NCBI GenBank assembly: GCA_016186645.1
Contig: JACPLF010000007.1
Span: 9,151-73,150 of the forward strand
Length of the DNA: 64,000 bases
Reading direction: 5' to 3'
Origin: Candidatus Levyibacteriota bacterium
Lineage (GTDB): Bacteria > Patescibacteriota > Microgenomatia > Levybacterales > UBA12049
Part shown: positions 28,609 through 60,640 of the stretch, piece after piece
Numbering within the stretch: the stretch's first letter is position 1
How the letters are laid out: each line of letters begins with the position of its first letter
Notes under the pieces: generated by a model
Seen by the model: only the letters and a program-made list of their open reading frames with translations
What the model was told of the DNA's origin: nothing
Database searches by the model: none
Position numbers and translations under genes: made by a program

Positions 28609-28646
28609 TTTAAAATGTATTTTTACAATTTACTATTTACAATTTA
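28609..28646. repeat. AT-rich intergenic repeat, partial copy E
   Basis: ...TTTTACAATTTACTATTTACAATTTACTATT right flank of the four-helix-bundle gene. Confidence 0.6.
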
Positions 28647-32051: not shown

Positions 32052-32121
32052 ACATTCGCTCCTTTGCGTCGCTCAAATTAAAAATTAAAAATGAAAAATT
32101 CAAAATTAACTTTTAACTTTT

Positions 32122-37490: not shown

Positions 37491-38315
37491 TTATTTTTGC
37501 TTGCCCCTCGAAGCGAAATCGTTGTGGGGTCCTTTCATAAAAGTATCTTCAATAACATCTACCGCATCTCTCATAAGTAAAATCAATTTGTTATCAATAA
37601 CTTTATAAGCATTGATCATGTTTGCAGTCAATATCTCTACTCCTTCGATATTTCTTGCAGCCCTGTAAACATTTTCTGCTTCTTTTGCCTTAGGCATTAC
37701 CAATAAAACTCTGGAAGCATTTTTTATTCCCAAATTTTCCAAAACTTGAGCCATTAATTGTGTTTTAGGTGTTATTTCTTCCAATCCTTTTACGATTTTT
37801 AGTTCGTTGTCTTTAAGCTTTGAGGAAAGTGCTGAGAAAAGCGCAAGGGTTTTCATTTTTTTTGAGAGACTGAGAGAAAAATCTCGGGGTCTTGGTCCAA
37901 AAGCAAGTCCTCCGCCGACAAAAATAGGAGCTCTTTTTGAGCCGTGGCGGGCGCGTCCTGTACCTTTTTGCTGCCAGACTTTTTTGGTTGTTTTATTTAC
38001 TTCTCCTCTGTCTTTTGTCTTGACTGTTCCCTGTCTTTGATTTGCCAAATAAACTCTGACCGCTTGGGCCATAAGAGAATCATTTATTTTTGCGCCAAAT
38101 ACTTCAGTCGGCAAACTAATGCTGCCTGATACTTTTCCTTTTGTGTCAAAAACAGAAGCGTTTAAACCTGCTCCCTTTGTTTTTGCCAAAACAGGAATTT
38201 TAGCTTCAATCTTAGCCTTTTTAGCTGATTTTTTTACAACAATTTTAGGAGCTTTAATATTCTTTTTCGCAACTTTTAATTTTGAACTTTTAACTTTTAA
38301 CTTTTTAGCTGGCAT
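37491..38315 (-). CDS. rplD: 50S ribosomal protein L4 with ~55-aa Lys/Ala-rich N-terminal extension
   Basis: L4 core (QKGTGRARHGS..). Unusual KAKK-rich N-terminus. Confidence 0.9.
   Translation of the reverse strand: MPAKKLKVKSSKLKVAKKNIKAPKIVVKKSAKKAKIEAKIPVLAKTKGAGLNASVFDTKGKVSGSISLPTEVFGAKINDSLMAQAVRVYLANQRQGTVKTKDRGEVNKTTKKVWQQKGTGRARHGSKRAPIFVGGGLAFGPRPRDFSLSLSKKMKTLALFSALSSKLKDNELKIVKGLEEITPKTQLMAQVLENLGIKNASRVLLVMPKAKEAENVYRAARNIEGVEILTANMINAYKVIDNKLILLMRDAVDVIEDTFMKGPHNDFASRGKQK
37504..37529. repeat. GC-rich palindromic motif CCCCTCGAAG-hairpin-GGGG (overlaps rplD 3-prime end)
   Basis: CCCCTCGAAGCGAAATCGTTGTGGGG. Confidence 0.6.
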
Positions 38316-41325: not shown

Positions 41326-43056
41326 TTATCCAAAGGTAAATGCGAAGACTTCAATGCCTGGGGAAAATTCTAGTCTTAATAAATAATTTTGCGCCTGATT
41401 TAATTGAATAAGATTATAAAGCATATCTTTATCAACAATAGTTACTCCGTTCTCAACGTCTATTCCTCCTCTTAAATTATCTATCAATTTTCCATCGAGG
41501 AAAACTTTTACTTCCCCAACTCCAGAATTTGGAGGCCTCATCACCAAAAATACTTTGCTGGCGAAAAAATTATATTCCAAAACCGCATTCGCACCTGCTC
41601 TAGAGTATTCATTATCAACCATCCATTCTCCTCCCAAACTAAAAGAGTTTGGCGGAATATTTTTTGAAAGTTTAAATGTTTTATTTCCATTTGTAACCCC
41701 ACCTCCCGGATATAAATATTGCATTCGTGACGATCCTAAATATGTTTCCGGAGAATTTCGAGTCTTGGGAGTTTGATCTACGGCTTCGATCATATCGTCG
41801 GAGACCGAATTACCCGCTTCCCTCAATAACTCCTGAATTGCCTTTTCCATTTCATCATATTCTCCCTCTCCAAAATGAACTTTTCTTATTATGCCTTTGC
41901 TATCTGCCAAATATTTTGCCGGCCAATATCTGTTGTTATACGCATTCCATGTTGCATAATCATTGTCTTGTGCAACAGGATAATGGATGTTATATTGTTT
42001 GATTGCTTGTAAAACATTATCTGTCTTTTTCTCAAACTCAAATTCCGGAGTGTGAATTCCGACCACCACAAATCCTTGATTCTTGTACTTCTCGTACCAT
42101 CCGGTGACAAATGGAAGAGTGCGAATGCAATTGATGCAAGTGTATGTCCAGAAATCCACAAGCACAACTTTTCCCAGCAAGCTTTGCATAGTTAAAGGAT
42201 TATCCGTATTAAGCCATTTCGTAATGCCCGCAAACTCAGGGGCATTTCCCAAATTAGGAAGAGCAGCTGAAGATTGGGGCATTTCTTTTTTGAGATCAAT
42301 CTTCATGTTGCGTAATTTATCAAGTTGATCTTTGACGCTGTTAGCGCTTTCCAATTTGTAAAGAAAATTAGAATATGAAGGAATTGCGTCTAGGAGCTTC
42401 ACTTGAATAACTTTGTCATAATTTGTATAAATTGCAACTGCTGTTAAAATCATAATGATTCCGAATATTTGCTGTATTCGTCCGGTATATTTTGATAAAA
42501 AGCGGGTCTTGGAAAAAAGATGACTTCCCAAAGTTGCAAAAATAAAAAGAGGAATTCCAAGTCCAATAACGTAAACGATGGTGACTAAGACAATTTCGAA
42601 ATTTACAGTTCTGGTTGCGGCTAAAGTTGCAATGGTTGCTAGAATTGGACCTGCGCAAGGCGACCAAACAAGTCCCAGTGAAAAACCGATAATTAACCCT
42701 CCCCAAAAACCATGGTGTGAATTGCTGGAAAATCCAAAACTTCTGCTAATTCTACTTACAAATCCTTCCAAGATTCTTGAAAGAGCAGGAATTACTAACG
42801 TTAATCCCAAAAAACCAATAACGATAACAGCAATTAAACGCAGAGAATTGGGGTCAAAATTGAAAAGTTTCACAAAATAAGAAATAGTAAGAGTAAAAAG
42901 AGCAAAGCTTATCATGATGCCGATTGTAATCCCTAGTGGCTTTCTTTTTTCTCCCGTTACAATTGAAGAAAATATAATTGGCAAAAGCGGCCAAATGCAC
43001 GGAGCAAGAATTGTAACAAAACCTGATAAGAAAGCGAAAAAAAGAAGAATCAACAT
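41326..43056 (-). CDS. CcdA/DsbD-family transmembrane thiol-disulfide transporter fused to TlpA/ResA-like thioredoxin domain plus unknown C-terminal domain
   Basis: LAPCIWPLLP and WSPCAGP transmembrane Cys pair, then thioredoxin fold with CINC active site (VVLVDFWTYTCINCIRTLP). Confidence 0.7.
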   Translation of the reverse strand: MLILLFFAFLSGFVTILAPCIWPLLPIIFSSIVTGEKRKPLGITIGIMISFALFTLTISYFVKLFNFDPNSLRLIAVIVIGFLGLTLVIPALSRILEGFVSRISRSFGFSSNSHHGFWGGLIIGFSLGLVWSPCAGPILATIATLAATRTVNFEIVLVTIVYVIGLGIPLFIFATLGSHLFSKTRFLSKYTGRIQQIFGIIMILTAVAIYTNYDKVIQVKLLDAIPSYSNFLYKLESANSVKDQLDKLRNMKIDLKKEMPQSSAALPNLGNAPEFAGITKWLNTDNPLTMQSLLGKVVLVDFWTYTCINCIRTLPFVTGWYEKYKNQGFVVVGIHTPEFEFEKKTDNVLQAIKQYNIHYPVAQDNDYATWNAYNNRYWPAKYLADSKGIIRKVHFGEGEYDEMEKAIQELLREAGNSVSDDMIEAVDQTPKTRNSPETYLGSSRMQYLYPGGGVTNGNKTFKLSKNIPPNSFSLGGEWMVDNEYSRAGANAVLEYNFFASKVFLVMRPPNSGVGEVKVFLDGKLIDNLRGGIDVENGVTIVDKDMLYNLIQLNQAQNYLLRLEFSPGIEVFAFTFG

Positions 43057-43149
43057 AAAGCTAAATTGACCTAATTACTCTAACTTCTAACTCACCTAAA
43101 GAAATACCAAGTTCCAACTTAGAAATTAGGCCTGCCACGTTTTACGTGG

Positions 43150-43650
43150 TCAATTAGAATAATTAGAAATTTCTTCTAAGAATCTTTCTTTACTCCATTG
43201 ATCTACAGATCTTGAAATCTCCTGCCCATTCCTGAGGAAAATTTTTGTATGTTGATATGGTACATTGAAATCTTTTGCAAGTTTTTTTTCATCTTCATCG
43301 GTCTCGCTATCATTGAAATTTACCCTAAATCCAATAATTCTATCCGTTGTTAAAGAATTAAAACCATCGAAAATTCCTGGCTCCTCAGCTCGGCAGATCG
43401 GACACCAATTAGCATAGAAATCCAGAAGAATTATTTTTTCAGATTTCAAAGCTTTTTCATAGTCATCTTTATTAAATTCCAGAAATGGAGAATAACCTCC
43501 TGCCAATACTCTTCCTGAATATCCCTCAATTTTCCTTTCTTCATTGGTAGCTTCTTCTGAGATTGTCGTTTGCTTTTGACTATTAAAAATAACTATCGTT
43601 CCAAAACCCAAAACAATAACTGCAATAAATAGAATTAAGAGCTTGTTCAC
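43150..43650 (-). CDS. membrane-anchored secreted thioredoxin-like protein
   Basis: N-terminal TM, WCPIC active site. Confidence 0.7.
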   Translation of the reverse strand: MNKLLILFIAVIVLGFGTIVIFNSQKQTTISEEATNEERKIEGYSGRVLAGGYSPFLEFNKDDYEKALKSEKIILLDFYANWCPICRAEEPGIFDGFNSLTTDRIIGFRVNFNDSETDEDEKKLAKDFNVPYQHTKIFLRNGQEISRSVDQWSKERFLEEISNYSN

Positions 43651-43705
43651 ATGTATATTATCCTAAGATATCAAACGTTATGTCAAGATGAGGATTAAAG
43701 AGGAA

Positions 43706-44185
43706 TTATCTTGTTACCGATATTACTTCACCTAGCTCTTGATTACCAGCGGCAACAGAAACAGTTATTCTGCTATTTGTGGCGCTCTGGGATATCTCAT
43801 ATTCAGTGTTATATGCCACTCCACAAGCAGTTATAGCGACTCCATCATTAGCCGCACCAGGATCAGATGGTAAAGCAGCAATATAGTCTGGTACTAAAAG
43901 AGCACATATGTCTGCCTCTGCTGCCCCTGCACCGTCGTCTGTAGCAATTGCAGCAACGGTTTCTGTAATACCAGCGGGAACAGCTCCTGCATTATCTGCC
44001 ATATATTGATTGACTGCATTAAGAATTGCATTAACATCGCTTCTTCTTTTTGTGTTATTTGCCTGAGAGAATTGTCTTGCCGGATTAATAGCGATAAGTG
44101 TGATTGCCAATAAGACTGCGAGGATTCCGATAACAACTAGGAGCTCTATTAATGTGAAACCTTTTTGATTTTTAAATAATTTCAT
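43706..44185 (-). CDS. type IV pilin (major pilin candidate)
   Basis: Class III signal MKLFKNQKG/FTLIELLVVIGILAVLL, with a Cys pair for a C-terminal disulfide loop. Confidence 0.8.
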   Translation of the reverse strand: MKLFKNQKGFTLIELLVVIGILAVLLAITLIAINPARQFSQANNTKRRSDVNAILNAVNQYMADNAGAVPAGITETVAAIATDDGAGAAEADICALLVPDYIAALPSDPGAANDGVAITACGVAYNTEYEISQSATNSRITVSVAAGNQELGEVISVTR

Positions 44186-44256
44186 GGGCAGTTATTTACT
44201 ACACAATCAGTATAGTCATAAAAAAAAGTCGTTGTCAAGGGGGAGTTTTGTAAAAT

Positions 44257-45390
44257 TTAAGTCCTGCCTATCAATACAGTAATTGTCTGATCAAAATCTT
44301 GATTTTCCGAAATTGAAATACTTGGTAAAACTTTTTTTATTTCTATAAATGCTTTTTCTCTGGCATCGGCAGGAACATTTTTGGAAAAAACTACAGAAGA
44401 CTTTTCTGCAGGTGAAGTCTCTGAAACTGAGCTTTTAATATCTTGAAAGCCTATTGCTTGTAATTGTTGGCTGAGACTATTAAATATTTCCGAAGCTTGC
44501 GTACTTTGCACAATTTTTACTCTTATAACTTTAAGGTCAGTGGGTATTGCACTTGCTTGAATCTGAACTGAGGGGGCTGTGGTTGGGATAGCAACACTGT
44601 TATCAACAGCGCTTTTTATTTTTTTACTCGCAGGATGCGTTTGGGAAGCTCCCATGTTAAGATAAACAACCGCAAGAATAATTACAAGAGTAACAAATAC
44701 GCCGATCAATATATAAAGGCTTAGATTTTGCGGTTTCTTTTCTTTTTCCTTCTGTTCTATCTCTAAGCCCTGCGGAGAAGTTATCCTCTGTTGGTTTGTC
44801 AATAAGTTACCCGTTCTTAAGACTTCGGATCCTTCTAAAATAATTTGTATATTGTTTTGTGTTAATCCTGCCGCAAAATTTATGTTTGTCCCATACATAA
44901 AGCTAGGAATTACCGCTTCTATTGTAGATCCTTTATTGACAAATACGTCAGCAATTGTCATAACAAGATCTTTATTAACAGCAGCTATACGGTTTAATTT
45001 ATCTGTTTTAATAACTTTGGCGAGGACTTCTTCAAAGGGAACATCTTCCAAAAATGCCTGTATCTCTTCTTTATGCTCTTTATCTATATTTCCCGGTGCT
45101 TCTAAACTCACAGTCTGAACAGGAGGAGTCTGTTTTTCTACAATATCAACCATATCCTTTTCATAAATTATGTTATCCGACAGAACTAATGAAAGGCTGC
45201 TTGGAACTATTTTATTTATTTGGATAAAAGTCGCAATAAGCCTCCCGAATTGCTCTTTATTCACCACATCCAAATTGGCAACAATATCCGGGGTGAAATT
45301 AAATCTCGCAACGTTTGAAAGAGTATCTTGAAAGATACTAAATCCGTTTCTGTCTAGAAATAAAATGATAGGATGGTTTTTAGAAGACAT
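44257..45390 (-). CDS. type IV pilus assembly membrane protein (PilM/PilN-like cytoplasmic N-domain, one TM, C-terminal LytR_C-like domain), putative
   Basis: Bitopic topology. The C-terminal region resembles the LytR/CpsA/Psr C-terminal domain pattern. Context-based. Confidence 0.3.
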   Translation of the reverse strand: MSSKNHPIILFLDRNGFSIFQDTLSNVARFNFTPDIVANLDVVNKEQFGRLIATFIQINKIVPSSLSLVLSDNIIYEKDMVDIVEKQTPPVQTVSLEAPGNIDKEHKEEIQAFLEDVPFEEVLAKVIKTDKLNRIAAVNKDLVMTIADVFVNKGSTIEAVIPSFMYGTNINFAAGLTQNNIQIILEGSEVLRTGNLLTNQQRITSPQGLEIEQKEKEKKPQNLSLYILIGVFVTLVIILAVVYLNMGASQTHPASKKIKSAVDNSVAIPTTAPSVQIQASAIPTDLKVIRVKIVQSTQASEIFNSLSQQLQAIGFQDIKSSVSETSPAEKSSVVFSKNVPADAREKAFIEIKKVLPSISISENQDFDQTITVLIGRT

Positions 45391-45393
45391 GTT

Positions 45394-45822
45394 TCATAAT
45401 TCCTTCCAGTTTGAAAATGTATAATATCCGTTACTATAATTCATTTGCGCCTGAACAGTTCTTTTAAAATTTCCATTTTGCCCAACCGAGACAACAGTCT
45501 TTGGATTAGCTCCTGTTACTGTTATTACTGCTGTTCCTGTACCAACTGTTAATGTCTCCCCTGCATAATTAGGATCTCGCAACAATCTTAAGAGCGCATT
45601 CTCAACTCCGCTTTCTGCCGTATAATATGCCGATGTCCCCTCCTGAAGCTTACTTGCGGAAATAGAGTTGGCAATAATAATTATTATTGCTCCAGAAGTA
45701 ATTGTCAATGAAATCAATACAAAAAATAATAATGTTATTAACGCCTGCCCCTTTTGAAGATGAGAAATGAGAAATGAGAAATGAGAAATATCTAGTAATT
45801 TGTTTTTAAAATTATTTTTCAT
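45394..45822 (-). CDS. pilin-like protein with long repeat-encoded leader (atypical cleavage motif G/QALIT)
   Basis: Leader MKNNFKNKLLDISHFSFLISHLQKG then a hydrophobic helix. Thr not Glu at +5. Confidence 0.45.
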   Translation of the reverse strand: MKNNFKNKLLDISHFSFLISHLQKGQALITLLFFVLISLTITSGAIIIIIANSISASKLQEGTSAYYTAESGVENALLRLLRDPNYAGETLTVGTGTAVITVTGANPKTVVSVGQNGNFKRTVQAQMNYSNGYYTFSNWKEL

Positions 45823-45847
45823 TTTTCACCTTTCATTTTTCATTTTG
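45762..45847. repeat. heptanucleotide tandem repeat cassette: (GAGAAAT)x4 inside the pilin-like leader plus upstream (TTTTTCA)-like x4 arm
   Basis: Exact 4x GAGAAAT on plus (ATTTCTC on the coding strand, encoding ISHFSFLISH). Inverted arm tttttcatttttcacctttcatttttca spans the RBS/start. Confidence 0.85.
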
Positions 45848-46387
45848 TTACTGTCTTCTCAAAGAAATATTTGTTTGAAAATTCCTTACTTCCCGTCCTG
45901 AAATTCTCTCTGTTTTTGAAGTAACTGTAAAATTAATTCTTAATGTATTCTCTATTCCTCCTGCATTTCCCAGACGCTGTACTGAAAAAGCCGAGATACT
46001 AGTTCCATAGTTATTTAAATTATTTGTTCCGAAGTTATTAACAAGAATTAAATTATTATTTGCATCTATACTGTAAGCATAATTTATTCCATCAATAACT
46101 ATTTGAAAATTATCATTAGTATCTCCATTGGAAACAGGAATATTTATGCTTTGCGCCCTATGAATATCATATGCAAGTCTTGCAAGAATATAATTACCAT
46201 CCTGTTCAACGCTGGATGTTGCGTTGGATTCTGACTGAACATCAAGGGCTGAAACAAAAACTGAAGTTAATATTGTTAACAAAACAGAAAGAATAGACAT
46301 ATATAATAGCAGCTCAACTACCGTGACCCCAATTTGCGAATTTCTTAAATTGAAAATTGAAAATTGAAAATTTAAAATTTTTTTCAT
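45848..46387 (-). CDS. minor pilin / pseudopilin with long leader
   Basis: MKKILNFQFSIFNLRNSQIG/VTVVELLLYMSIL, Glu at +5. Confidence 0.55.
   Translation of the reverse strand: MKKILNFQFSIFNLRNSQIGVTVVELLLYMSILSVLLTILTSVFVSALDVQSESNATSSVEQDGNYILARLAYDIHRAQSINIPVSNGDTNDNFQIVIDGINYAYSIDANNNLILVNNFGTNNLNNYGTSISAFSVQRLGNAGGIENTLRINFTVTSKTERISGREVRNFQTNISLRRQ
46350..46377. repeat. heptanucleotide tandem repeat (TTGAAAA)x3+1 in the 179-aa pilin-like leader
   Basis: Coding strand AATTTTC x3 encodes FQFSIFN. Confidence 0.85.
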
Positions 46388-46395
46388 GGCGCTTG

Positions 46396-46459
46396 CCCCG
46401 TTGATGTGACACCGTGAGGCGAGGATGTAAACCTCGCGAACGGCGAACGCTCTACGGGG
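46396..46459. promoter_or_regulatory. GC-rich nested-hairpin element in the 5-prime UTR of the 179-aa pilin-like gene (overlaps stop of the 665-aa gene)
   Basis: CCCCGT...GCGAGG-ATGTAAA-CCTCGC...ACGGGG, ending 8 nt before the ATG. Confidence 0.45.
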
Positions 46460-48449
46460 AATAATTTCCTGTCATATCATAAAAAATCGGGGTTGATAAT
46501 GAATCTGTTGTTGAAAAAAAAGCTTTGTATTTAAAACATTGTCCAGGATTAATATTTATAGGAACTGCAAAATTAAATGTCTGCACACCGGAAGTTTCAC
46601 TTGTTGTAAAAAAAGTTGATGAGGTAGCATCAGGCCCTACAAAAGAAAAACTTGCCCCATCGCAATTTCCGGAAACTTCCGGGGAAACTGCAATTTGGAA
46701 TTGAAGATCTGTGGAATTCGGCCTGTTTATAGACGTATCAAATCTATTAAAAGCTGTTGAATATCCTGAATCAAATACCCCTGAAATAAAAGTGCCGGAA
46801 CTTGCATAGGCTCCCTCCGGCCCTCCCTCAATAATTTTAAATTCAGAAGATGCATCACCTGTCATGATATATGAATATGCATCACCATCAGCCTCCAATA
46901 CTGCTGCGATGCCGTTTATTTTTTTCCCGTCCTGATCGCCTAGATTTAGCCCTCCGCAGCGGACTGGACTGGATTCATTGGAAATGTCAATCACCTGATA
47001 CTCTTCTGAGCCCTCCGTACCTTCTTTACCCACAATAATAGCTCTGTTACTGGGTACAACTGTTACTGCTTTCGGATCCATGCCGTTGGCGTCATAACTG
47101 CCAATTACCGGACGGTTTCCTGTTTTTACAGATGTATCTACAATAAAAAATTCCGGAAGCGCGTCCTGTTTGCCCGTTACAAGATACACTCTTGTTCCCG
47201 TAGTATTGACAAATAAATCTTTCGCGTCTTTTCCGGTTAGGTCTGCCTGGCCGACAATTGTTAAGTTATTTGGATTACTTACGTCAACAATCTGTAACTC
47301 AATATTTGATCCCTTTATTGTCACATATGCATAGGAGCCAACAACTACAACCCGTGTTCCATCTCCCACGGTTACCCCATCCGGATCAAGAAGCGACCGA
47401 GAGCCGCTTTTACTTGAAAGGTCAAAGCTGTAAAGTTTTTTTTCAGTAATCATATAGCCAACATCACCCAAAACCCATACCTGGTCACCCTTTTTATTTG
47501 TTGGAGCATCAAAGAAGCCTACTTCCGAATACTTGTTATTTGCGTCTTTAGTCCTAAGATCAATAATGACGACTTCCTTATGGGGATCGTCGGTTGCGAT
47601 ATAAGCATAATCTGTTTCTCCAAATACGCCATTTGTTTTATATCCGTCAAATGTTCCGTCAATTGATGGAACCGGAGGATTTGTATTGCTAATTGCAACA
47701 TTAGCAAAAGATACTCCTGATGAATTATCGCCAGTACCAACAAAGGTTTTGCCTTCAATGGCTGTTATCGCATCCGCAACGCCCTGCTTTGGCAAATCAA
47801 GGCTTGCGACAATAAATTGTCCTGGCTTACACCAATCCCCATTTCCTCCGGCTCCCAATGTGACTTCTCCGCCATTTGTATTGGTAACAACTGTACCGGA
47901 TTTTGTTCCTGTCTCAAAATCCGCAACTGTAGTTTGGGTAAAAGAATTATTATCCAGATATCTTGTAATAAATAAACTCGCACTAACTGTAGATGCGTAT
48001 GGTTGTGTCCAGGAGATTTCAATATCTACTTTTTTACTTGATGGATCTACAGATCCACCACTTGTGACGATTGCCCCGCTGGATGCTCTCTGAACATCTT
48101 CTATGTCAACTCTTTGCGTAAATGAATTGATATTTGCAGATCCAGTTGCCAGAGTCCAGGTTGATCCAGATATCACAGGATGGAAAGTTCCATTAACTGC
48201 AAAACTGGTCCAGCCTTTTTCCCTGACACTTCTAACTGCATCTACAGTTTCGTTTAGCAAATAAACTGCTTGTATTCTCTGGGTTTGCTGAGCTTTACCC
48301 TCACGCGATGATACTAATCCTGTTAATAACGCAGGAAGTAAAATAGCAGCAAGTCCCATTGCCAAAACTATCTCAACAAGCGACTGCCCCCTCTCAAAAT
48401 GAGATATGAGAGATGAGAGATGAGAAATGTTTAATCCTTTATTTTTCAT
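46452..48449 (-). CDS. large pilin-like protein: prepilin N-terminus fused to ~600-aa extracellular domain (candidate tip adhesin)
   Basis: MKNKGLNISHLSSLISHFERGQ/SLVEIVLAMGL class III signal. Large Gly/Thr/Asp-rich domain with repeated beta-rich segments. Confidence 0.55.
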   Translation of the reverse strand: MKNKGLNISHLSSLISHFERGQSLVEIVLAMGLAAILLPALLTGLVSSREGKAQQTQRIQAVYLLNETVDAVRSVREKGWTSFAVNGTFHPVISGSTWTLATGSANINSFTQRVDIEDVQRASSGAIVTSGGSVDPSSKKVDIEISWTQPYASTVSASLFITRYLDNNSFTQTTVADFETGTKSGTVVTNTNGGEVTLGAGGNGDWCKPGQFIVASLDLPKQGVADAITAIEGKTFVGTGDNSSGVSFANVAISNTNPPVPSIDGTFDGYKTNGVFGETDYAYIATDDPHKEVVIIDLRTKDANNKYSEVGFFDAPTNKKGDQVWVLGDVGYMITEKKLYSFDLSSKSGSRSLLDPDGVTVGDGTRVVVVGSYAYVTIKGSNIELQIVDVSNPNNLTIVGQADLTGKDAKDLFVNTTGTRVYLVTGKQDALPEFFIVDTSVKTGNRPVIGSYDANGMDPKAVTVVPSNRAIIVGKEGTEGSEEYQVIDISNESSPVRCGGLNLGDQDGKKINGIAAVLEADGDAYSYIMTGDASSEFKIIEGGPEGAYASSGTFISGVFDSGYSTAFNRFDTSINRPNSTDLQFQIAVSPEVSGNCDGASFSFVGPDATSSTFFTTSETSGVQTFNFAVPININPGQCFKYKAFFSTTDSLSTPIFYDMTGNYSP

Positions 48450-48475
48450 TTTTCATTTCTAATTTTTCATTTTTA
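48401..48475. repeat. heptanucleotide repeat cassette (GAGANAT)x4 in the 665-aa pilin-like leader plus inverted (TTTTTCA)-like arm
   Basis: gagatat gagagat gagagat gagaaat, then tttttca tttttca tttctaa tttttca. Confidence 0.8.
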
Positions 48476-48991
48476 CAATGATTCCACCTGAGTTACCGTA
48501 CCATAAATATTTAGATAAATTCTTTGTAATTTAGAACTAGGATTATCTTGCAATTCTATAGTCAGAACTCCTGAAATTGTTCCGCTTAATTTGGAAAAAA
48601 TAACATCGAATCCGCTATTATTGAGTTGCATATTATTATCCAAATTTATTATGGAATTTCCGGAATCTTCCGGGGAATAAGTTGTTCCATGAAAAGTAAT
48701 ATATCGGTTTGAGTCAAAATGGATTCCGTATGAATCGTAAGATTCTCGTCCTTCCGTATCTCCGATCATTGATTTTAATTGCTGTTGTCTTAAATCTGAG
48801 ATCAATACATCCTGAGTTGAAGTTAAAGAAGCTGTTTGTTGAGAACGTATAAGATTTATTGTGATAAATCCCAATAGGGTCATGATTATTGACATTACAA
48901 TAATCATTTCAATCAGGGAAAAACCCTTCTGAAATGAGAAGTGAGAGATGAGAGTTGAAAGATTTCTAATTTTTGATTTCTCATTTCTCAT
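48473..48991 (-). CDS. minor pilin / pseudopilin with long leader
   Basis: MRNEKSKIRNLSTLISHFSFQKG/FSLIEMIIVMSII. Confidence 0.6.
   Translation of the reverse strand: MRNEKSKIRNLSTLISHFSFQKGFSLIEMIIVMSIIMTLLGFITINLIRSQQTASLTSTQDVLISDLRQQQLKSMIGDTEGRESYDSYGIHFDSNRYITFHGTTYSPEDSGNSIINLDNNMQLNNSGFDVIFSKLSGTISGVLTIELQDNPSSKLQRIYLNIYGTVTQVESL
48929..48991. repeat. heptanucleotide inverted-repeat cassette encoding the whole leader of the 172-aa pilin-like gene
   Basis: gaaatga gaagtga gagatga gagttga ... atttctc atttctc. Coding strand reads MRNEKSKIRNLSTLISHFSFQ. Confidence 0.8.
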
Positions 48992-48994
48992 TTT

Positions 48995-50050
48995 TTAACG
49001 TCCCCCAACTTGACCAATAAGTCCGTAAATAGGAGCAATAATAGCAAGCATCATTCCGCCAACCAATGCTCCGATTGCCACCAAAAGAATTGGCTCAAGA
49101 AGCGCAGTTGCAGTTTTTAATTTAGCTGACACTTGATAATCTAAGAACTCCGAAATTTCCGACATGGACTTATCTAATGATCCGCTTCTTTCTCCTGCTT
49201 CTGTGATTCTTATTATTATACTTGGGAAAACTTTTCTATTATTTTTGAACCCTTCCGAAAGTTTATGACCAGCTGCCACTGCTTCTTTTGCATGCCTTAC
49301 TCCCATTTCTACCTCATGACTCACAACAACATTTTCCGTTAATTCCAAAGCGCTTGTGATAGGTATACCTGCATTTAAAAGCAGATAAAAGTTTCTTGAA
49401 AATTTTGTCAGGTCAATGTCTTTTGCTAATCCTGATAAAATTGGGAGTTTAAAGATTAAATTTAACAGGAACTTCTTCTTTTTTTTATAAATAAAGAGTA
49501 TTAAGAAAGAAAATATTGCCAACCCCACAATTACAGGAATTGTTTGACTTAGTATTGCATTTGACATAAAAATTAATATTTGGGTAGGCAAAGGAAGATC
49601 AACCCGAAGTCTTGAAAAAACGCTGGAAATTTTTGGTACAACTACAATAAGAATCATAAGGAGGACTGCAAAAAATACAAAAACTATAAATAATGGGTAG
49701 ATTAAAGCAGATTTTATTTTATCTGAAAACTCCATGTCTTTTTTTAAATTTTCTTTTAAATCTTTCAGGGTAACATCCAGTGTTCCCGCCTCCTCCGATG
49801 CTTTAATAATACTTGTGGCAACTCTTGAGAAAACATTTGGAAATTTGGAAAAAGTAAAATATATATGTTTTCCCTGCGTTAAATCTTCTCTTAACACTTC
49901 TAGAAATTTTTTTTGATTTTTTCGGGAATCTTCCAACAATGCGTCAACTGCCTCCAAAAGCGGAATTCCGGCAGAAAGCATAGTTCCTAAATCACTTAAC
50001 ATGCCAAGCTTGTCGTTATTTGATAAAGTAATATTTTCTATTTTTGCCAT
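48995..50050 (-). CDS. pilC: type IV pilus platform protein PilC (GspF family, short form)
   Basis: GspF-domain topology with three TM segments and conserved cytoplasmic domain. Confidence 0.75.
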   Translation of the reverse strand: MAKIENITLSNNDKLGMLSDLGTMLSAGIPLLEAVDALLEDSRKNQKKFLEVLREDLTQGKHIYFTFSKFPNVFSRVATSIIKASEEAGTLDVTLKDLKENLKKDMEFSDKIKSALIYPLFIVFVFFAVLLMILIVVVPKISSVFSRLRVDLPLPTQILIFMSNAILSQTIPVIVGLAIFSFLILFIYKKKKKFLLNLIFKLPILSGLAKDIDLTKFSRNFYLLLNAGIPITSALELTENVVVSHEVEMGVRHAKEAVAAGHKLSEGFKNNRKVFPSIIIRITEAGERSGSLDKSMSEISEFLDYQVSAKLKTATALLEPILLVAIGALVGGMMLAIIAPIYGLIGQVGGR

Positions 50051-50058
50051 ATAATTTA

Positions 50059-50079
50059 CCCTGAGCGTTAGCCGAAGGG
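50059..50079. repeat. palindromic repeat CCCTGAGCGTTAGCCGAAGGG (pilC-pilB junction)
   Basis: Same core as 36373. Confidence 0.5.
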
Positions 50080-51735
50080 CTATTTATTCTGAATTTTCGT
50101 AACCCTTAACACTTCTTCAATTGTGGTTAATCCCTTCATCACTTTCTCAAGTCCATCATCCAACATTGTTGTCAAACCCTGCTCAATTGCTTTTTGCAAC
50201 AGGACATCAGAGTCCTGTCTTTTTGTTATTAAATCGCGTATGTCCTTTGTTACTTCCAATACTTCAAAAACTCCAATTCTCCCGGAATATCCGGTAAGAT
50301 GACAAATTTTGCAACCACTGCCTTGATAAATAATAATACTATTTTTCTCACCTATATATTTATTGATAATTTCTTGCGGTAAATTTTTCAAAAGTTCTTC
50401 TTTCGTAATAACTCTTGTGCCTTTGCACATCTCACAGATTTTTCTGACAAGTCTTTGAGCGATTATCACATTTACGGTTGAGGCAACCAGAAAAGGTTCG
50501 ATATTCATATCAATAAGGCGGGGAAGCGCAGTTGCGGCATCATTAGTATGAAGAGTTGATAAAACCAAATGTCCTGTCAAAGATGCATTTACAGCAATTC
50601 CTGCTGTTTCGCTGTCTCTAATTTCTCCAACAAAAATAATATTTGGATCTTGCCTCAAAATTGATCTTAACCCATTTGCAAAAGTCAGATTTGTTTTCGC
50701 ATTAACATTAATTTGATTAACTCCTTTTATCCTGTACTCGGCAGGATCTTCAATGGTTGTAATATTTTTTTCCCTGGTATTTAATATTTTTAAAATTGCA
50801 TAAATGCTCGTTGTCTTTCCGCTACCTGTAGGTCCTGTGGATAAAATCATACCGTAGGTTTTGCTATATGCATTTGTAACTTTTTTTAAATCTTTTTCAT
50901 TCATTCCAAGATCAATAAGTGAAAATTTCCTAAATTTTGAGGATAAAAGTCTTAATACTGCTTTTTCACCTTCTGTTACCGGCATTATAGAAACACGAAC
51001 ATCTATTTCTTCTTCTTCCAAATTAATCCTCATTTTTCCATCCTGAGGACTTAAATGCTCATCTGTCCTAAGACGGGACAGAATCTTTATTCTTGTTACT
51101 ATCTGGTCATGAAGACTTTTCGGCAAAAAAAGTACATCCTGTAAAATTCCGTCTATTCTAAAACGAACTAGAGAATTTTTTTCCTCCGGCTCTATGTGGA
51201 TGTCTGATGCTTTATCCTGATATGCATAATCTATCAGAAGATCAACTATTTTTGACATTGGTATTTCGCTAGTCTTTATTAACTGATCAAATGTTCTTTG
51301 CAGATCTTTTCTGTAGATTCTCAAAGTATTGGAAATATCCTGATCCGTTGCTAAAAAAACAATAACAGGCAAACCTATTTTTTTTGATATCATTGAAGTC
51401 AGCTCTTTATCCGAAGGGTCAACCATTGCAATCTTGACTCCGGCTGCATCTCTGGCAAAAGGAATTACCTTTTTCTTTCTCGCCATTTTCTCGGGAACTA
51501 TATTAAAAACATCAGGGGCAATTGTGGTCTTTGCCAAAACAATAAAAGGGACCTTTAGAAAATCTGAAATTAATATTCCCAGATTTTCATCCGATACAAT
51601 ATCTTTCTCAACCAGAGTTTCGGCAATAGTGTAACCCGCATTTTTAGCGTCTTCTTCAATTTGGGCAAATCCCTTTTCATCAATGAGGCCGTTTTTAAGA
51701 ACCAGAGATTTTAGCTGTTCATTTGTAACAAGCAT
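50080..51735 (-). CDS. pilB: type IV pilus assembly ATPase PilB (GspE family)
   Basis: Walker A GPTGSGKTT, Asp box, His box, tetracysteine CxxC..CxxC. Confidence 0.9.
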   Translation of the reverse strand: MLVTNEQLKSLVLKNGLIDEKGFAQIEEDAKNAGYTIAETLVEKDIVSDENLGILISDFLKVPFIVLAKTTIAPDVFNIVPEKMARKKKVIPFARDAAGVKIAMVDPSDKELTSMISKKIGLPVIVFLATDQDISNTLRIYRKDLQRTFDQLIKTSEIPMSKIVDLLIDYAYQDKASDIHIEPEEKNSLVRFRIDGILQDVLFLPKSLHDQIVTRIKILSRLRTDEHLSPQDGKMRINLEEEEIDVRVSIMPVTEGEKAVLRLLSSKFRKFSLIDLGMNEKDLKKVTNAYSKTYGMILSTGPTGSGKTTSIYAILKILNTREKNITTIEDPAEYRIKGVNQINVNAKTNLTFANGLRSILRQDPNIIFVGEIRDSETAGIAVNASLTGHLVLSTLHTNDAATALPRLIDMNIEPFLVASTVNVIIAQRLVRKICEMCKGTRVITKEELLKNLPQEIINKYIGEKNSIIIYQGSGCKICHLTGYSGRIGVFEVLEVTKDIRDLITKRQDSDVLLQKAIEQGLTTMLDDGLEKVMKGLTTIEEVLRVTKIQNK

Positions 51736-51753
51736 AGGGCAGTAATATATTTT

Positions 51754-52122
51754 TTAGCGCGAACTCATAACTTGATTAATTTTGGCTACCATACTATTAA
51801 AATCGAAAAATCCCTTATTGATATATCCATTGGCTCCCAGCTTTTGTGCATTCTCTACATCTTTTTCCTGACCAAGAGTTGAAAAAATGATAACCGGAAT
51901 TTTTTTCAAATTTTCATCTTGTGAGCGAGCTGCCAACACAGCAAATCCATCCATTTTCGGCATGATCATATCTAACAAAACTAAATCAGGAGGGCTATTT
52001 CTCATTTTCATTAATCCTTCCTGACCATCCCCTGCAACTTCAACTTCTACTTTATTTTCTTGAAGTTTTGTTGAGTAAAATTTTTGAAAAAATTTGTCAT
52101 CTTCAACAATTAATATCTTCAT
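51754..52122 (-). CDS. single-domain response regulator (CheY/PilH-like receiver)
   Basis: DD..D..K receiver residues (ILIVEDD, LLDMIMP, IIFST..K). Confidence 0.8.
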   Translation of the reverse strand: MKILIVEDDKFFQKFYSTKLQENKVEVEVAGDGQEGLMKMRNSPPDLVLLDMIMPKMDGFAVLAARSQDENLKKIPVIIFSTLGQEKDVENAQKLGANGYINKGFFDFNSMVAKINQVMSSR

Positions 52123-52127
52123 ATTTT

Positions 52128-52460
52128 TTAATTGTAATGCTGAACTTGTTTCAGCATCTCTCCTATTTCTTTGACCAAACTTTTAATGTTTGGAATAATA
52201 TCCGCAGTTAACTGATTGCTTCCCTTAAGCGAATCATTTGATGCGTTTTCAATATTCAAACAAATATTTGCAATATTGTTATATCCCATCACTTGGCTTT
52301 GGCTTTTTAGAGAATGAGAAGCTATATGTAAGTTATTCAAAGCTTCCTTATTGGAAACATCAGTAGACAACTCATTCAAACTTGTATGCATTTTTTTAAT
52401 ATATTCTCTCGCAGTCTTAATATAAATACTTTTATAACTTCCTAAGTCAATAGGTTCCAT
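52128..52460 (-). CDS. histidine phosphotransfer (Hpt) domain protein
   Basis: ASHSLKS phosphoacceptor-His motif in a four-helix protein of Hpt size. Confidence 0.55.
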   Translation of the reverse strand: MEPIDLGSYKSIYIKTAREYIKKMHTSLNELSTDVSNKEALNNLHIASHSLKSQSQVMGYNNIANICLNIENASNDSLKGSNQLTADIIPNIKSLVKEIGEMLKQVQHYN

Positions 52461-52514
52461 ATGGAAATAATACTACACTTGCCCTTCTCATTCAAGGTGT
52501 GATACTATCTTTTT

Positions 52515-52895
52515 ATGGACCCAAAGAGGATTTTGGTTGTTGAAGACGATTTATTTTTAAGAGAACTGTATACAGATATTTTATCATCCGAAGGGTATAA
52601 AGTAGAAGCTGCTGCGGATGGAGAAGAAGCTTTGCAAAAAATAAAAGTTGGAGGCTATGACATTATCCTTTTAGATATAATAATGCCGAAAATGGATGGG
52701 TTGGAAGTTATGAGGCAAGTACAAAGTAAGCCTCCACAAAATCCCAATAAGTGCGTCATCTTTCTGACCAATCTTGATAAGGATGAAGAAATAAAAAAAG
52801 CAATGCTATTGGGAAATGGATATTTGATCAAAAGCCAAATCACCCCAGGAAGTCTAGTTGAGGAAGTAAAAAAATATTTAGATAAATATAAATAA
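52515..52895 (+). CDS. single-domain response regulator (receiver)
   Basis: ILVVEDD, ILLDIIMPKMDG, T..K conserved. Confidence 0.8.
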   Translation: MDPKRILVVEDDLFLRELYTDILSSEGYKVEAAADGEEALQKIKVGGYDIILLDIIMPKMDGLEVMRQVQSKPPQNPNKCVIFLTNLDKDEEIKKAMLLGNGYLIKSQITPGSLVEEVKKYLDKYK

Positions 52896-52896
52896 C

Positions 52897-54354
52897 CTAG
52901 GCTGTTTTCAGAGTAAAACTAAATTTGGATCCTTTCCCTTCCCCTTCTGATTCCGCCCATATTTTCCCACCCATCAATTCCACTATGGATTTTGATAAAT
53001 ATAAGCCTAGTCCTGTTCCTTGTGAATTTTGCTTTACAAGATAATTATTTCCAACCATGGAAAATTTTTGGAAAAGCTTTGTCATATCTTCCCGGCCAAT
53101 TCCTTTTCCATTGTCTGCAACTGAAACAATTTCTGCCGCATCGTTCGGATTGTGGCTTATTTCAATTCTTATTGTCCCATTCTCCGGTGTAAATTTCAAA
53201 GAATTGCCAATTAAATTTATCAAAACCTGCTCAATCCTTTCCGGATCCGCCTGCACGAGAGGTAAAGACTGCAAAGGCCTTGCGAATTGCAAATTTATCT
53301 CTTGTTCTTGCGCTTTCGGCAGCATTTCTGTGTATACGGTATTTATTAACTCGGAAAGATCAATAGACTTCATGGCAAAAGTGAATCTTCCGGACTCGAT
53401 TCTGGAAACATTCAGCATATCATTCACCAGATTAATAAGTCTTTGTGTTGAGGTATAGGCTCTATCAATATACATTTTTTGTTTTTCTGAAAAAGAGGAT
53501 ATATTCTTTTTATCCAAGAGCATCCAAAGATAAGACTTAATAACAGTCATCGGAGTTCTCAGTTCGTGTGATGCCAAGGACACAAATTTATCTTTCAGCT
53601 TATCCAAATCTTGAAGTTTTAAATTCGCGAATTTTAACTGCTCTGAAGTTTTTCTTAAATTTGAATACAATATTGCATGTTCCATGGCGATACCTACTCC
53701 ATCTGCAAAATTCTGAATTATTGCAAGCTCATACTTCGTGAGATCTTCTTTTTTCTTTTTGGTACCAGCCACAAAAACTCCAATAGCAGTTTCCATACTT
53801 CCGTAAATAGGATAGACAACAGCAGTCTTTGTGCCAATTATATTTTGAAGATCTATTGCCTGGACTTCTGTTAATGGAGGACATAAAACATCGCGAAGAT
53901 TTTCTGTGATAAGAAGCTTGTTCTCCCTAACAACTTTAGCCATGTAATTGTTCTGGTCATTTAGGGAAACTCCTGTTTTGTTAAATGCTTCTGTTAACAT
54001 TTTTACTGACCCGTCAGCTTCTTGGATTGAAGATATTCCGACTCTTTTAATTGTCTGGCTGATTCTTTCAATAACCGCAACAATTCCCGTATTAAAATAA
54101 AGTTCGTTCGGAATTGTTTCCGCAATTTTTTGAATAACATCGTGAAAATTTAGACTTTGCAGAATAACTTTATTTAATCTCTGGCTTGCAATGAGCGCTC
54201 TATTTTGTTCACCCAAACTTATATCCGATTTCTTTTTTAGGGCCTTAACCATGCTGCTAATACCCAAAAGAAGAATAAAGACCATGAAGAGAACTGACAA
54301 AAGCAGAATTTGTGAGAAGGTTAATTCGGGCAGCATTATTTGATTATAGTACAA
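52897..54354 (-). CDS. sensor histidine kinase (TM anchor, GAF-like sensor, HisKA, HATPase_c)
   Basis: H-box LASHELRTPMT. N, G1, G2 boxes (ADNGKGI, GTGLGL). Confidence 0.85.
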   Translation of the reverse strand: MYYNQIMLPELTFSQILLLSVLFMVFILLLGISSMVKALKKKSDISLGEQNRALIASQRLNKVILQSLNFHDVIQKIAETIPNELYFNTGIVAVIERISQTIKRVGISSIQEADGSVKMLTEAFNKTGVSLNDQNNYMAKVVRENKLLITENLRDVLCPPLTEVQAIDLQNIIGTKTAVVYPIYGSMETAIGVFVAGTKKKKEDLTKYELAIIQNFADGVGIAMEHAILYSNLRKTSEQLKFANLKLQDLDKLKDKFVSLASHELRTPMTVIKSYLWMLLDKKNISSFSEKQKMYIDRAYTSTQRLINLVNDMLNVSRIESGRFTFAMKSIDLSELINTVYTEMLPKAQEQEINLQFARPLQSLPLVQADPERIEQVLINLIGNSLKFTPENGTIRIEISHNPNDAAEIVSVADNGKGIGREDMTKLFQKFSMVGNNYLVKQNSQGTGLGLYLSKSIVELMGGKIWAESEGEGKGSKFSFTLKTA

Positions 54355-57192: not shown

Positions 57193-57258
57193 AATAATAA
57201 AATCTCAAAAATCAAAGGTCAAAACTCAAAATTATCGCAGACTTGAGATTTGCCTTGT

Positions 57259-60557: not shown

Positions 60558-60640
60558 AATTAGAGATGAGAGGTTAGAAATGAGAGATATTTTTCATTTC
60601 TCATTTTTCATTTCTCATCTTGGTATTATATCTCATTTGC
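60558..60640. repeat. solo degenerate copy of the pilin-leader heptamer cassette between rpoC stop and rpsL start
   Basis: Minus strand ATGAGAAATGAAAAATGAGAAATGAAAAATATCTCTCATTTCTAACCTCTCATCTC resembles the 5-prime end of the 172-aa pilin-like gene but is stopped after 5 codons. Confidence 0.7.

Follow-up and report, generated by a model that had tools for sequence, protein, structure and literature searches.

A probable modular minor pilin with a predicted seven-bladed LVIVD-type propeller in a Levybacteria type IV pilus operon

The 64,000-nucleotide stretch of DNA that we analysed (the window) carries a type IV pilus operon that runs in the order PilB, PilC, four minor pilins, a membrane protein and a candidate major pilin (Table 1). 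The second of the four minor-pilin genes encodes a protein of 665 amino acids. A first-pass annotation of the sequence had placed this open reading frame, which lies on the minus strand, exactly where we found it, and had read its product as a candidate pilus-tip adhesin of a possible CPR organism; the gene lies among the minor-pilin genes of the operon. The product is 100% identical to the NCBI entry 'MAG: hypothetical protein HYW62_03295 [Candidatus Levybacteria bacterium]', which confirms the CPR origin. No alternative ATG, GTG or TTG start lies between M1 and G21, and an in-frame stop is found two codons upstream of M1; the 21-aa leader is therefore real, provided that the conserved GQSLVE is translated. 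Promoter and terminator scans gave counts equal to the shuffled expectation, and an Rfam scan of positions 43000-52500 returned a single match, to a plant microRNA and below threshold, which we took to be due to chance.

Table 1 Genes and features of the pilus locus, with positions in the window
Feature	Position	Strand	Basis and remarks
PilB/T2SSE ATPase with MshEN domain	50080-51735	-	PF00437 2e-125; PF05157 3e-14
PilC/T2SSF platform protein	48995-50050	-	PF00482 9.6e-46
Upstream minor pilin, 172 aa, GspH/ComGD-like, has E+5	48473..48991	-	PF07963 E 1.5e-6
Upstream heptamer array, GAAAAAT-type (coding strand), spans start codon	48441..48474	-	TRF and inverted-repeat list
Modular minor pilin CDS, 665 aa	46452..48449	-	ORF list; ATG start, stop codon within coordinates
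Leader peptide, residues 1-21 (MKNKGLNISHLSSLISHFERG)	48387..48449	-	Predicted prepilin peptidase cut after G21; pLDDT <50
Degenerate heptamer array in leader codons	48399..48429	-	TRF period 7, 4.4 copies, 91% matches
Pilin alpha1 helix, residues 22-78, Q+1, E+5, hydrophobic alpha1N	48216..48386	-	AlphaFold2
Pilin globular head, residues 79-165, antiparallel beta-sheet	47955..48215	-	Two independent models
Residues 166-204, short strands	47838..47954	-	pLDDT 75-91 in full model, <50 without C-terminal part
Seven-bladed LVIVD-type beta-propeller, residues 205-546	46812..47837	-	28 strands, 7 groups of 4
Pfam LVIVD repeat, blade 4, residues 362-401	47247..47366	-	PF08309
C-terminal beta-sandwich, residues 547-665	46455..46811	-	AlphaFold2, pLDDT 81-96
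Downstream minor pilin, 179 aa, GspJ/PilW-position, has E+5	45848..46387	-	Weak N-terminal N_methyl, HpsC, PRK10557
Minor pilin, 142 aa, without E+5 (G/QALIT), GspK/ComGG-position	45394..45822	-	Weak GspK, E 0.042
Single-pass membrane protein, 377 aa	44257..45390	-	Weak LytR_C at C terminus only
Major pilin candidate, 159 aa	43706..44185	-	PF07963 E 3.7e-10; TIGR02532 1.6e-8

The same gene order recurs in the CPR loci L001 and L002; in a third, L003, pilB-pilC lies ~4 kb upstream and the major pilin was not identified. Within the operon, the minor-pilin genes fit the series H-I-J-K, with an H-like protein of 172 aa, the 665-aa protein, a J-like protein of 179 aa and a K-like protein of 142 aa. 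NCBIfam matches of the 172-aa pilin were all under the cut-offs (ComGD 1.6e-6, GspH 1.9e-6), the position of the 179-aa pilin is conserved in L001-L003, and the L002 and L003 orthologues of the 142-aa pilin likewise lack E+5. HIJK minor pilins form a tip complex that is capped by a subunit without Glu5 (PMC10191384), and the 142-aa pilin is a candidate for this cap. For the 665-aa protein, the 'I' position is a tentative one, based on gene order together with a weak similarity to the GspI class (ComGE, E 0.018, far under the cut-off; the ComGE Pfam model matched 2 of 67 homologues at E about 0.09). Orthologues of the N-terminal 220-280 residues of the 377-aa membrane protein occupy the same position in L001-L003, with 27-30% identity. 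The window ORFs that were scanned, those up to about 21 kb and between about 37 and 59.5 kb, outside the ribosomal-protein genes, contain no PilY1 domain.

The first-pass annotation had read the N terminus as that of a prepilin, quoting a segment (GQSLVEIVLAMGLAAILLPALL) that begins at residue 21. This reading holds: the class III signal consists of a 21-aa leader ending in Gly, the junction G/QSLVE and a hydrophobic stretch of some 25 residues that has Glu at +5 (...FERG/QSLVEIVLAMGLAAILLPALLTGLV), and 67 homologues retain G-1 in 64 cases, Q+1 in 61 and E+5 in 66. Such conservation of the cleavage motif argues against an unprocessed N terminus. The hydrophobic segment, residues 20-48, is the only one in the protein (Kyte-Doolittle 19-residue windows exceed 1.6 solely at starts 20-30). 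Leaders of the homologues range from 3 to 67 aa and are unconserved (33% mean identity), 21 aa being longer than usual. The N_methyl family PF07963 matched 37 of the 67 homologues (best E 4.2e-5), and neither PF07963 nor TIGR02532 matched the 665-aa protein itself at E <= 0.1. Prepilins usually carry Phe or Met at +1, and the Gln found here probably lowers the score of the N-methylation model.

AlphaFold2 predicted a pilin 'lollipop' fold for this part of the protein, both in the full-length model (mean pLDDT 86.9, pTM 0.72) and for residues 1-204 alone: a helix of 57 residues packs on a beta-sheet, with pLDDT mostly 80-94. The strands of the head comprise residues 87-94, 97-102, 105-107, 110-121, 133-147 and 153-162 (pLDDT 80-94). 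Residues 166-204, over which the family has a mean identity of 69% to the 665-aa protein, probably belong to the C-terminal beta-sandwich, as judged from the models. A Foldseek search of the PDB with the model of residues 1-204 found no significant match to a solved pilin, the best being a Thermus competence pilin (6qvf, E 0.25), so that the minor-pilin class (H, I, J or K) is not assignable by structure.

Some homologues carry the JGI label 'type II secretory pathway pseudopilin PulG', no gene for a prepilin peptidase (Peptidase_A24/PilD), PilT or a secretin is present among the scanned window ORFs, and the propeller pilin of TM7x is reported without a predicted PilD signal (PMC11623550), all of which would suit a surface protein held by an uncleaved N-terminal anchor or a secretion-system pseudopilin. 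We give such a non-pilin very little credence: a simple anchor would not explain the retention of G-1 (64/67) and E+5 (66/67), the model shows the long alpha1 helix with its packed beta-sheet, and the operon encodes a major pilin and three further pilins. To our knowledge, moreover, CPR cells have no outer membrane across which a type II secretion system could export, which speaks against a secretion pseudopilin.

Beyond the pilin module, the model places 7 x 4 propeller strands between residues 213 and 545. The PF08309 match to the fourth blade (E 1.8e-10; 40.4 bits against a cut-off of 20.2) recurs in 66 of the 67 homologues, and a profile built from blade 4 of the 67 homologues also detected blades 2 (E 1.5e-6), 6 (1.7e-4) and 7 (0.011). 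We take IPR013211 to be the InterPro entry for the LVIVD repeat, the founding members of which, by the Pfam description, are paired with other surface domains such as PKD, not with a pilin module. The strand-like segments that the first-pass annotation had singled out as recurring start at residues 281, 367, 421 and 525; Pfam, the blade profile and the strand count all identify a true internal repeat. Of the two folds proposed there, propeller or sandwich, both are predicted, the propeller by Pfam, AlphaFold2 and Foldseek and the C-terminal beta-sandwich by the AlphaFold2 model, in which it is formed by strands 551-555, 559-575, 580-589, 622-628, 636-647 and 655-664. No Pfam family matched this sandwich in the 665-aa protein or the 67 homologues. 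The protein qualifies as a modular pilin through its PF08309 propeller, a domain foreign to type IV pilus biology joined to a pilin module.

Searching PDB and BFVD with the whole model, Foldseek returned seven-bladed WD40-type propellers from the PDB (3ow8, TMt 0.79; RACK1, 0.72-0.74) and no intracellular enzyme fold. The propeller resembles only generic propellers (8-12% identity), so that these matches give no clue to the ligand. Matches to podovirus tail-hub/nozzle proteins (P22 gp10-like), DDB1 and WD40 proteins had 8-15% identity and low global TM, and we read neither a function nor a phage origin from these. A PDB sequence search with the 67-homologue profile gave nothing at E <= 1.

Past residue 40, the protein is rich in Gly (10.6%), Ser (10.4%), Thr (9.8%), Val (9.4%) and Asp (7.4%). 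The ectodomain has a pI of 4.4, with 67 D+E against 39 K+R, and is acidic in every homologue (pI 4.07-4.92). Two of its four cysteines, C207 and C498, are invariant; C596 and C638, in the sandwich, are found in 64/67 homologues, and the cysteine count is even in 67/67. An even, conserved set of cysteines together with an acidic ectodomain is an extracytoplasmic signature. The acidity also bears on the idea of a competence-pilus DNA receptor, analogous to Thermus ComZ, that takes up DNA for the nucleotide supply of a CPR cell. Modular pilins can serve in this way (ComZ is discussed in PMC8179133), a Thermus competence pilin heads the structural matches of the pilin module, and the operon shows weak ComGE and ComGD similarities. 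However, that match is not significant, no DNA-binding domain was detected in the 665-aa protein or the 67 homologues, and the ectodomain is acidic throughout the family; we consider a DNA receptor distinctly improbable.

A further proposal was that the leader is one of several built from heptamer repeats and marks a phase-variable surface determinant. A period-7 array does lie within the leader codons (coding strand: ATTTCTC, ATCTCTC, ATCTCTC, ATATCTC), but it is imperfect: no more than two adjacent units are identical, and three or more perfect copies never occur in a row. Slipped-strand mispairing in these heptamers would shift the frame, 7 not being divisible by 3, and could switch the gene on and off; period-7 arrays are enriched over other periods in the window, and two neighbouring minor-pilin genes have perfect leader arrays of 4.3 and 3.7 copies. 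Against this, 19 of the 30 period-7 arrays are found no more than about 100 nt from a start codon, among them the start codons of EF-G, S12, L4, L36 and S13, which are not contingency genes, and the 4-aa leaders of two homologues with 69-77% identity (P0002 and P0015) are free of repeats. Translation from the other upstream ATGs meets stop codons, which leaves a shifted frame with no rescue start and also counts against switching. Phase variation of this gene is therefore unsupported, and we rate it as highly improbable. The array that spans the start codon matches the leader array in part, in inverted orientation; an RNA hairpin formed by the two, which are partly complementary, folds no better than shuffled sequences (z -0.6).

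The reading that we regard as probable is that the gene product belongs, as a modular minor pilin, to a conserved type IV pilus of CPR bacteria (Microgenomates/Levybacteria) and displays its propeller for ligand binding in the tip or priming complex. The 21-aa leader would be cut after G21 by a prepilin peptidase with its gene elsewhere in the genome, and the mature subunit of 68 kDa would join the three small minor pilins, which gene order marks as H-like, J-like and the E5-less K-like cap. Together, these four would prime pilus assembly and end up at the pilus tip, where the acidic, disulfide-stabilized propeller and sandwich would be displayed and bind a ligand, the job done by PilY1 in diderms and by modular pilins in Streptococcus sanguinis and Saccharibacteria TM7x. 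A place in the tip (priming) complex is the most likely one for the propeller pilin, as an analogue of PilY1 from outside the PilY1 family. The PilY1 domain (PF05567/IPR008707) had no Pfam match in the 665-aa protein or the 67 homologues, and PilY1 was absent from the 50 best Foldseek PDB matches of the full model. Location at the tip and function as an adhesin are plausible, as is the functional replacement of a separate PilY1 by the propeller pilin.

Judged by sequence identity, the propeller pilin is among the most conserved proteins of the operon, comparable to PilB and PilC. It shares 69, 50 and 56% identity with its counterparts in L001, L002 and L003, respectively, compared with 64 and 64% for PilB (L001 and L002 only), 52-60% for PilC and 32-55% for the small minor pilins, and all of its domains are about equally conserved (56-69%). 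At E <= 1e-30 the family falls into 954 clusters of 50% identity; the majority of the best 150 are full-length, and hundreds of relatives align over the full length at 50-77% identity. With this extent of conservation, free swapping of the extracellular domain between orthologous loci, which the first-pass annotation had proposed to check, is unsupported. Limited module variation is seen in some relatives, with a duplicated propeller or an inserted lectin domain; in one of them (P0122), a concanavalin-A-like lectin domain sits between blades 4 and 5, with 54-55% identity over the aligned segments, an insertion that fits a role in displaying a ligand-binding surface. Such high conservation is atypical for an adhesin that recognizes variable hosts and counts against an adhesin reading.

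These comparisons bear directly on a purely structural or regulatory role, in which the propeller would be a built-in equivalent of the PilY1 C terminus that acts in the start or stability of assembly, or in retraction control, with no part in adhesion. Conservation equal to that of PilB/PilC and far above that of the other minor pilins, spread about evenly over the domains, would be expected of such a priming factor, as would its fixed place among four core minor-pilin genes, and conservation is typical of the core minor pilins that assembly depends on (PMC10191384). However, the relatives that carry an inserted lectin or a second propeller point to outward-facing binding, and TM7x without its propeller pilin PilX2 is still piliated, yet host binding falls (PMC11623550). 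The two roles are also compatible, since PilY1 has both. We consider priming to the exclusion of adhesion rather unlikely and retain the ligand-displaying tip pilin as our preferred reading. Conservation on par with the assembly ATPase suggests that the ligand or the assembly role is probably common to many Microgenomates; a shared ligand might be, for example, a widespread cell-wall glycan and not a strain-specific one. More tentatively, the propeller pilin could be a core, near-universal part of the Microgenomates pilus that both primes assembly and binds a conserved host molecule such as a common cell-wall glycan, with the lectin-insertion and double-propeller variants reflecting changed or broadened targets; we see this as a possibility that we would not yet back.

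We know of no cultivated member of the Microgenomates, the group that includes Levybacteria, and a pilus subunit that bears a large binding module readily suggests itself for their contact with partner cells. If it does bind a conserved host molecule, it would be the first candidate host-recognition determinant for a large and wholly uncultivated part of the CPR. Given its unusual conservation (954 clusters, ATPase-like identity), the protein could be expressed and could serve in glycan- or cell-binding screens or as bait or label for hosts in environmental samples. The concept itself is already known, from modular pilins in 2021 and from a propeller-bearing CPR pilin that affects host binding in 2024; the value here lies in a well-defined family with a good model rather than in a new principle.

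Among known systems, PilY1/PilC, the tip adhesin of diderm type IVa pili in Pseudomonas, Neisseria and Myxococcus (PMC7541494), offers a seven-bladed propeller at the tip that works with four minor pilins in priming and adhesion. PilY1 is a non-pilin that docks non-covalently on the minor pilins, whereas the propeller described here is covalently fused to a prepilin. Thermus thermophilus ComZ and ETEC CofB are likewise minor pilins enlarged by big beta-rich domains at the tip (PMC8179133). Neither has a propeller: ComZ, which binds DNA, has a beta-solenoid set into its pilin sheet, and CofB forms trimers and combines a beta-repeat with a beta-sandwich. With the LVIVD surface proteins (PF08309), whose repeat Adindla et al. 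(2004, PMC2447325) defined in cell-surface proteins of archaea and bacteria, our protein shares the ~42-aa repeat above the Pfam cut-off, but only one of its seven blades reaches the Pfam model.

Within the CPR, a close parallel is the minor pilin PilX2 of the saccharibacterium Nanosynbacter lyticus TM7x. It has a heptabladed propeller and is the proposed adhesin of the thin pili, and its deletion halves host binding (Grossman et al. 2024, PMC11623550). TM7x belongs to a different CPR class from the Levybacteria protein. Compared by published description, PilX2 has RCC1 repeats in place of LVIVD and is reported without a predicted PilD signal, whereas the 665-aa protein has a conserved G/QSLVE. 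Raynaud et al. (2021, PMC8179133) describe modular pilins as widespread, with a role as tip adhesins; Dataset S1 of that study lists IPR012902-IPR013211 architectures, mostly from CPR, and the LVIVD-propeller pilins are a family known from sequences alone. Similar in layout are PilB (vWA) and PilC (lectin) of Streptococcus sanguinis (PMC8179133; Shahin et al. 2023, PMC9934059). The binding module differs, being an LVIVD propeller with a beta-sandwich instead of a vWA or ConA-like domain, and there is no sequence similarity to PilB/PilC. Both systems nonetheless join a pilin module with a class III signal to a bulky non-pilin binding module, are encoded in a monoderm-type pilus operon near which no PilY1 gene was found, and are proposed to display that module at the pilus tip.

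The LVIVD pilin gene starts with ATG and encodes a 665-aa protein that matches NCBI 'MAG: hypothetical protein HYW62_03295 [Candidatus Levybacteria bacterium]', encoded on a 244-kb contig, at 100% identity, confirming an earlier guess that the source is a CPR/Patescibacteria genome. Its N terminus reads MKNKGLNISHLSSLISHFERG before and QSLVEIVLAMGLAAILLPALLTGLV after the predicted cleavage site at G21. The protein has a single hydrophobic segment, and it lies here. This prepilin signal is conserved: in alignment A1 of 67 family members, we found G-1 in 64, Q+1 in 61 and E+5 in 66, with an unconserved leader of 3–67 aa before the glycine, and PF07963 (N_methyl) matched 37 of the 67. The prepilin N terminus proposed in the first-pass annotation therefore holds. 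An uncleaved anchor or a pseudopilin is disfavoured by the conserved G-1 and E+5 and by the operon context. Glutamine at +1, where phenylalanine or methionine is usual, also occurs in the 142-aa pilin, making two of the four minor pilins, and in L002 and L003 orthologues.

Among four minor-pilin genes, the position of this one is fixed. The same gene order is found in the window and in three other CPR loci, L001 (a 574-kb JGI contig), L002 (which carries a 1,015-aa long form) and L003 (a Woesebacteria contig), except that pilB–pilC lies ~4 kb upstream in L003, a locus in which we identified no major pilin. Type IV filaments have a tip-located priming complex with this order, H, I, J, K, closed by a Glu5-less subunit (PMC10191384). 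In it the 665-aa protein would take the 'I' position; as no solved structure is significantly related to the pilin head, this assignment is limited to gene order and a weak match to ComGE.

Several neighbours attracted attention in their own right. The 377-aa membrane protein keeps its operon position in all loci (27–30% identity over the N-terminal 220–280 residues) and has no informative Pfam match; its C-terminal ~130 residues, missing from shorter orthologues, weakly match LytR_C. It may substitute for PilM/N/O-type inner-membrane components. Two-component control of the pilus operon is suggested by further genes. In the window and in L002, pilB is immediately preceded by a gene for a single-domain response regulator; in L003 this gene is found on the other strand, just downstream of pilC. 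The window also has a second response regulator and a GAF-domain histidine kinase nearby, and L003 has a histidine kinase. L002 carries three major-pilin paralogues, of which the outer two, which share their BLAST statistics and their first 60 residues, flank a divergent third; this may reflect recent duplication or a pilin cassette arrangement. Between the 665-aa and 179-aa pilin genes is a GC-rich 64-nt spacer (genome, 36% GC), whose hairpin beats 200/200 shuffles (-27.1 kcal/mol for a 121-nt stretch, z -2.3) and which shows no U-tract or Rfam match. The spacer may serve mRNA processing or stability, separating the expression of the upstream minor pilins from that of the downstream ones.

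Coordinates of the pilus locus, related features and period-7 arrays (in the window unless another locus is named)
Feature	Coordinates	Strand	Remark
Histidine kinase and response regulators	51754-54354		GAF-domain kinase, second regulator
Response regulator	51754-52122	(-)	
PilB ATPase	50080-51735	(-)	
PilC platform	48995-50050	(-)	
172-aa pilin	48473-48991	(-)	GspH/ComGD-like
665-aa gene	46452-48449	(-)	LVIVD pilin
Spacer	46388-46451	(-)	64 nt
179-aa pilin	45848-46387	(-)	J-position
142-aa pilin	45394-45822	(-)	without Glu5, K-position
377-aa membrane protein	44257-45390	(-)	
159-aa major pilin	43706-44185	(-)	
Thioredoxin	43150-43650	(-)	
DsbD-type membrane protein	41326-43056	(-)	fused to thioredoxin-like domains
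L002 response regulator	3373-3747		
L002 long form (P0104)	7001-10048		1,015 aa
L002 major-pilin paralogues	12782-14805		outer two: 12782-13279, 14308-14805
L003 two-component genes	2225-2599, 5110-6522		
Array in 665-aa leader	48399-48429		degenerate
Inverted array at 665-aa start codon	48441-48474		GAAAAAT-type
Arrays at minor-pilin starts	45760-45846, 46347-46379, 48399-48474, 48934-48993		
Other period-7 arrays (examples)	25091-25686, 28622-28652, 29944-30040, 32075-32121, 38271-38305, 57200-57231, 60560-60618		

A Pfam scan of the 665-aa protein returned one LVIVD repeat (PF08309, residues 362–401, E 1.8e-10; we take IPR013211 to be the InterPro entry) and no other significant match. LVIVD matches 66 of the 67 aligned members, placing the protein in the LVIVD repeat family. 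The AlphaFold2 model built with A1 is confident (mean pLDDT 86.9, pTM 0.72) and, after a disordered leader, predicts a pilin lollipop (helix 22–78, six-stranded sheet 87–162), short strands at 168–198, 28 strands between 213 and 545 in seven groups of four, and a C-terminal beta-sandwich (551–664). When residues 1–204 were predicted alone, the pilin module was reproduced and 166–204 became disordered, suggesting that these strands are part of the C-terminal sandwich; the propeller would then be an insertion within the sandwich domain. The composition is rich in G/S/T/V/D, in line with the first description, and the strand-like segments quoted at that time lie at residues 281, 367, 421 and 525. 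As a blade-4 profile recovers blades 2, 6 and 7, the repeats are genuine propeller blades, and the choice then offered, beta-propeller or beta-sandwich, resolves in the model and the LVIVD match into a seven-bladed propeller plus a sandwich. Foldseek against the PDB returned generic seven-bladed propellers at 8–12% identity (WDR61 3ow8, TMt 0.79; RACK1, 0.72–0.74); among the best 50 matches there was no PilY1 and no enzyme-specific fold, such as the intracellular one that would have spoken against a surface protein. The best viral matches were podovirus tail-hub/nozzle proteins (P22 gp10-like 'stabilization protein', T7-type tail tubular protein B; E down to 7e-15); at ~10% identity and low global TM, we take the resemblance to be one of propeller architecture only.

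All members of A1 have C207 and C498, and 64 of 67 have C596 and C638; the cysteine count is even in all 67 proteins. We read the even count as pointing to disulfides and hence to an extracytoplasmic location. Immediately after the major-pilin gene come genes for a separate thioredoxin and a DsbD-type protein; considered with the conserved, always even-numbered cysteines in the large pilin, they hint at extracytoplasmic disulfide handling tied to the pilus. The ectodomain is acidic (pI 4.4; family range, 4.07–4.92), and a role as DNA receptor is disfavoured by this surface.

The first-pass annotation raised the possibility that the large domain is swapped between orthologous loci, which is contradicted by its conservation. 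We found at least 988 homologues in a 5.8-billion-protein set, the best 120 of which show 78–100% query coverage and 48–77% identity; those with names come from Levybacteria, Woesebacteria and other Patescibacteria. Among 1.84 billion cluster representatives, a profile search gave 954 clusters at E <= 1e-30, and most of the best 150 are full-length, about 600–720 aa. Individual domains are about equally conserved (56–69%). Such full-length, even conservation argues against swapping; the protein is under strong purifying selection and in this respect is unlike a fast-evolving, strain-specific adhesin.

Identity of window proteins to their counterparts in three CPR loci (%; PilB compared with L001 and L002)
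Protein	L001	L002	L003
LVIVD pilin	69	50	56
PilB	64	64	
PilC	52	60	57
Major pilin	57	51	not found
Three small minor pilins	38-42	34-44	32-55
377-aa membrane protein	30	29	27

Modular change in the family is limited. Forms of ~1,020 aa, such as P0104, carry a second propeller copy in tandem; in the 897-aa homologue P0122 (54–55% identity over aligned segments), blades 4 and 5 are separated by an inserted Laminin_G_3/concanavalin-A-like lectin domain; and some 880–950-aa relatives have 6–8 canonical LVIVD repeats. Homologue P0121 is grouped with P0104 and P0122 as a variant.

A heptamer-repeat leader had been taken to mark a likely phase-variable determinant. The period-7 array is indeed there, within the leader, and an inverted array overlaps the start codon; the contingency-gene reading is unsupported. 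The leader array lacks any run of three perfect copies, the hairpin predicted at the gene start is no better than shuffles, and homologues P0002 and P0015 (69–77% identity) have 4-aa leaders without repeats. Period 7 is commoner than any other period in the window (~30 arrays), and 19 of the arrays lie at most ~100 nt from a (-) strand start codon, among them those of EF-G, S12, L36, S13 and L4 as well as of the pilins. Many are inverted pairs directly upstream of ATG (GAGAAAT/GAAAAAT ... ATTTCTC, or AAATAGT ... TTTACTA), and the element upstream of rpsL and those in the pilin leaders are one and the same inverted repeat, GAGAAAT/ATTTCTC. The arrays are a genome-wide feature around start codons, and the simplest reading is that an intercistronic repeat has spread into leader codons, where any sequence would be tolerated because the leader is cut off. 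In the window, three or more perfect copies in a row occur only in the leaders of the 142-aa and 179-aa pilins and in the L4 gene; as the 142-aa gene has 4.3 perfect copies, its phase variation is conceivable.

We propose that a prepilin peptidase encoded elsewhere would cut the leader after G21, and that the protein would assemble with the three small minor pilins into a priming complex, displaying a 62-kDa propeller–sandwich module at the pilus tip that may bind a conserved ligand. A rival reading, a purely structural priming role, is compatible with the conservation. The LVIVD pilin is a moderately useful candidate host-contact protein for uncultivated Microgenomates.

By its prepilin signal, predicted fold, operon context and added propeller, the protein classes as a type IV pilin and, more specifically, a modular one. 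It falls outside the PilY1 family, lacking a PilY1 domain and being itself a pilin, and is thus at most a functional analogue of PilY1. Our literature search found no relevant paper pairing 'LVIVD' with 'pilin'. Three published systems are analogous: S. sanguinis modular pilins (PMC8179133); PilY1 and the minor pilins that go with it (PMC7541494); and PilX2 of TM7x, a CPR minor pilin that bears a heptabladed propeller of the RCC1 type, host binding falling by half when PilX2 is lost (PMC11623550). Dataset S1 of PMC8179133 already contains the architecture 'prepilin motif + IPR013211', and the text of the paper mentions an 860-aa Falkowbacteria protein with 12 IPR013211 motifs. The LVIVD pilin is real, well defined and ordinary in principle, an architecture of a kind already known.
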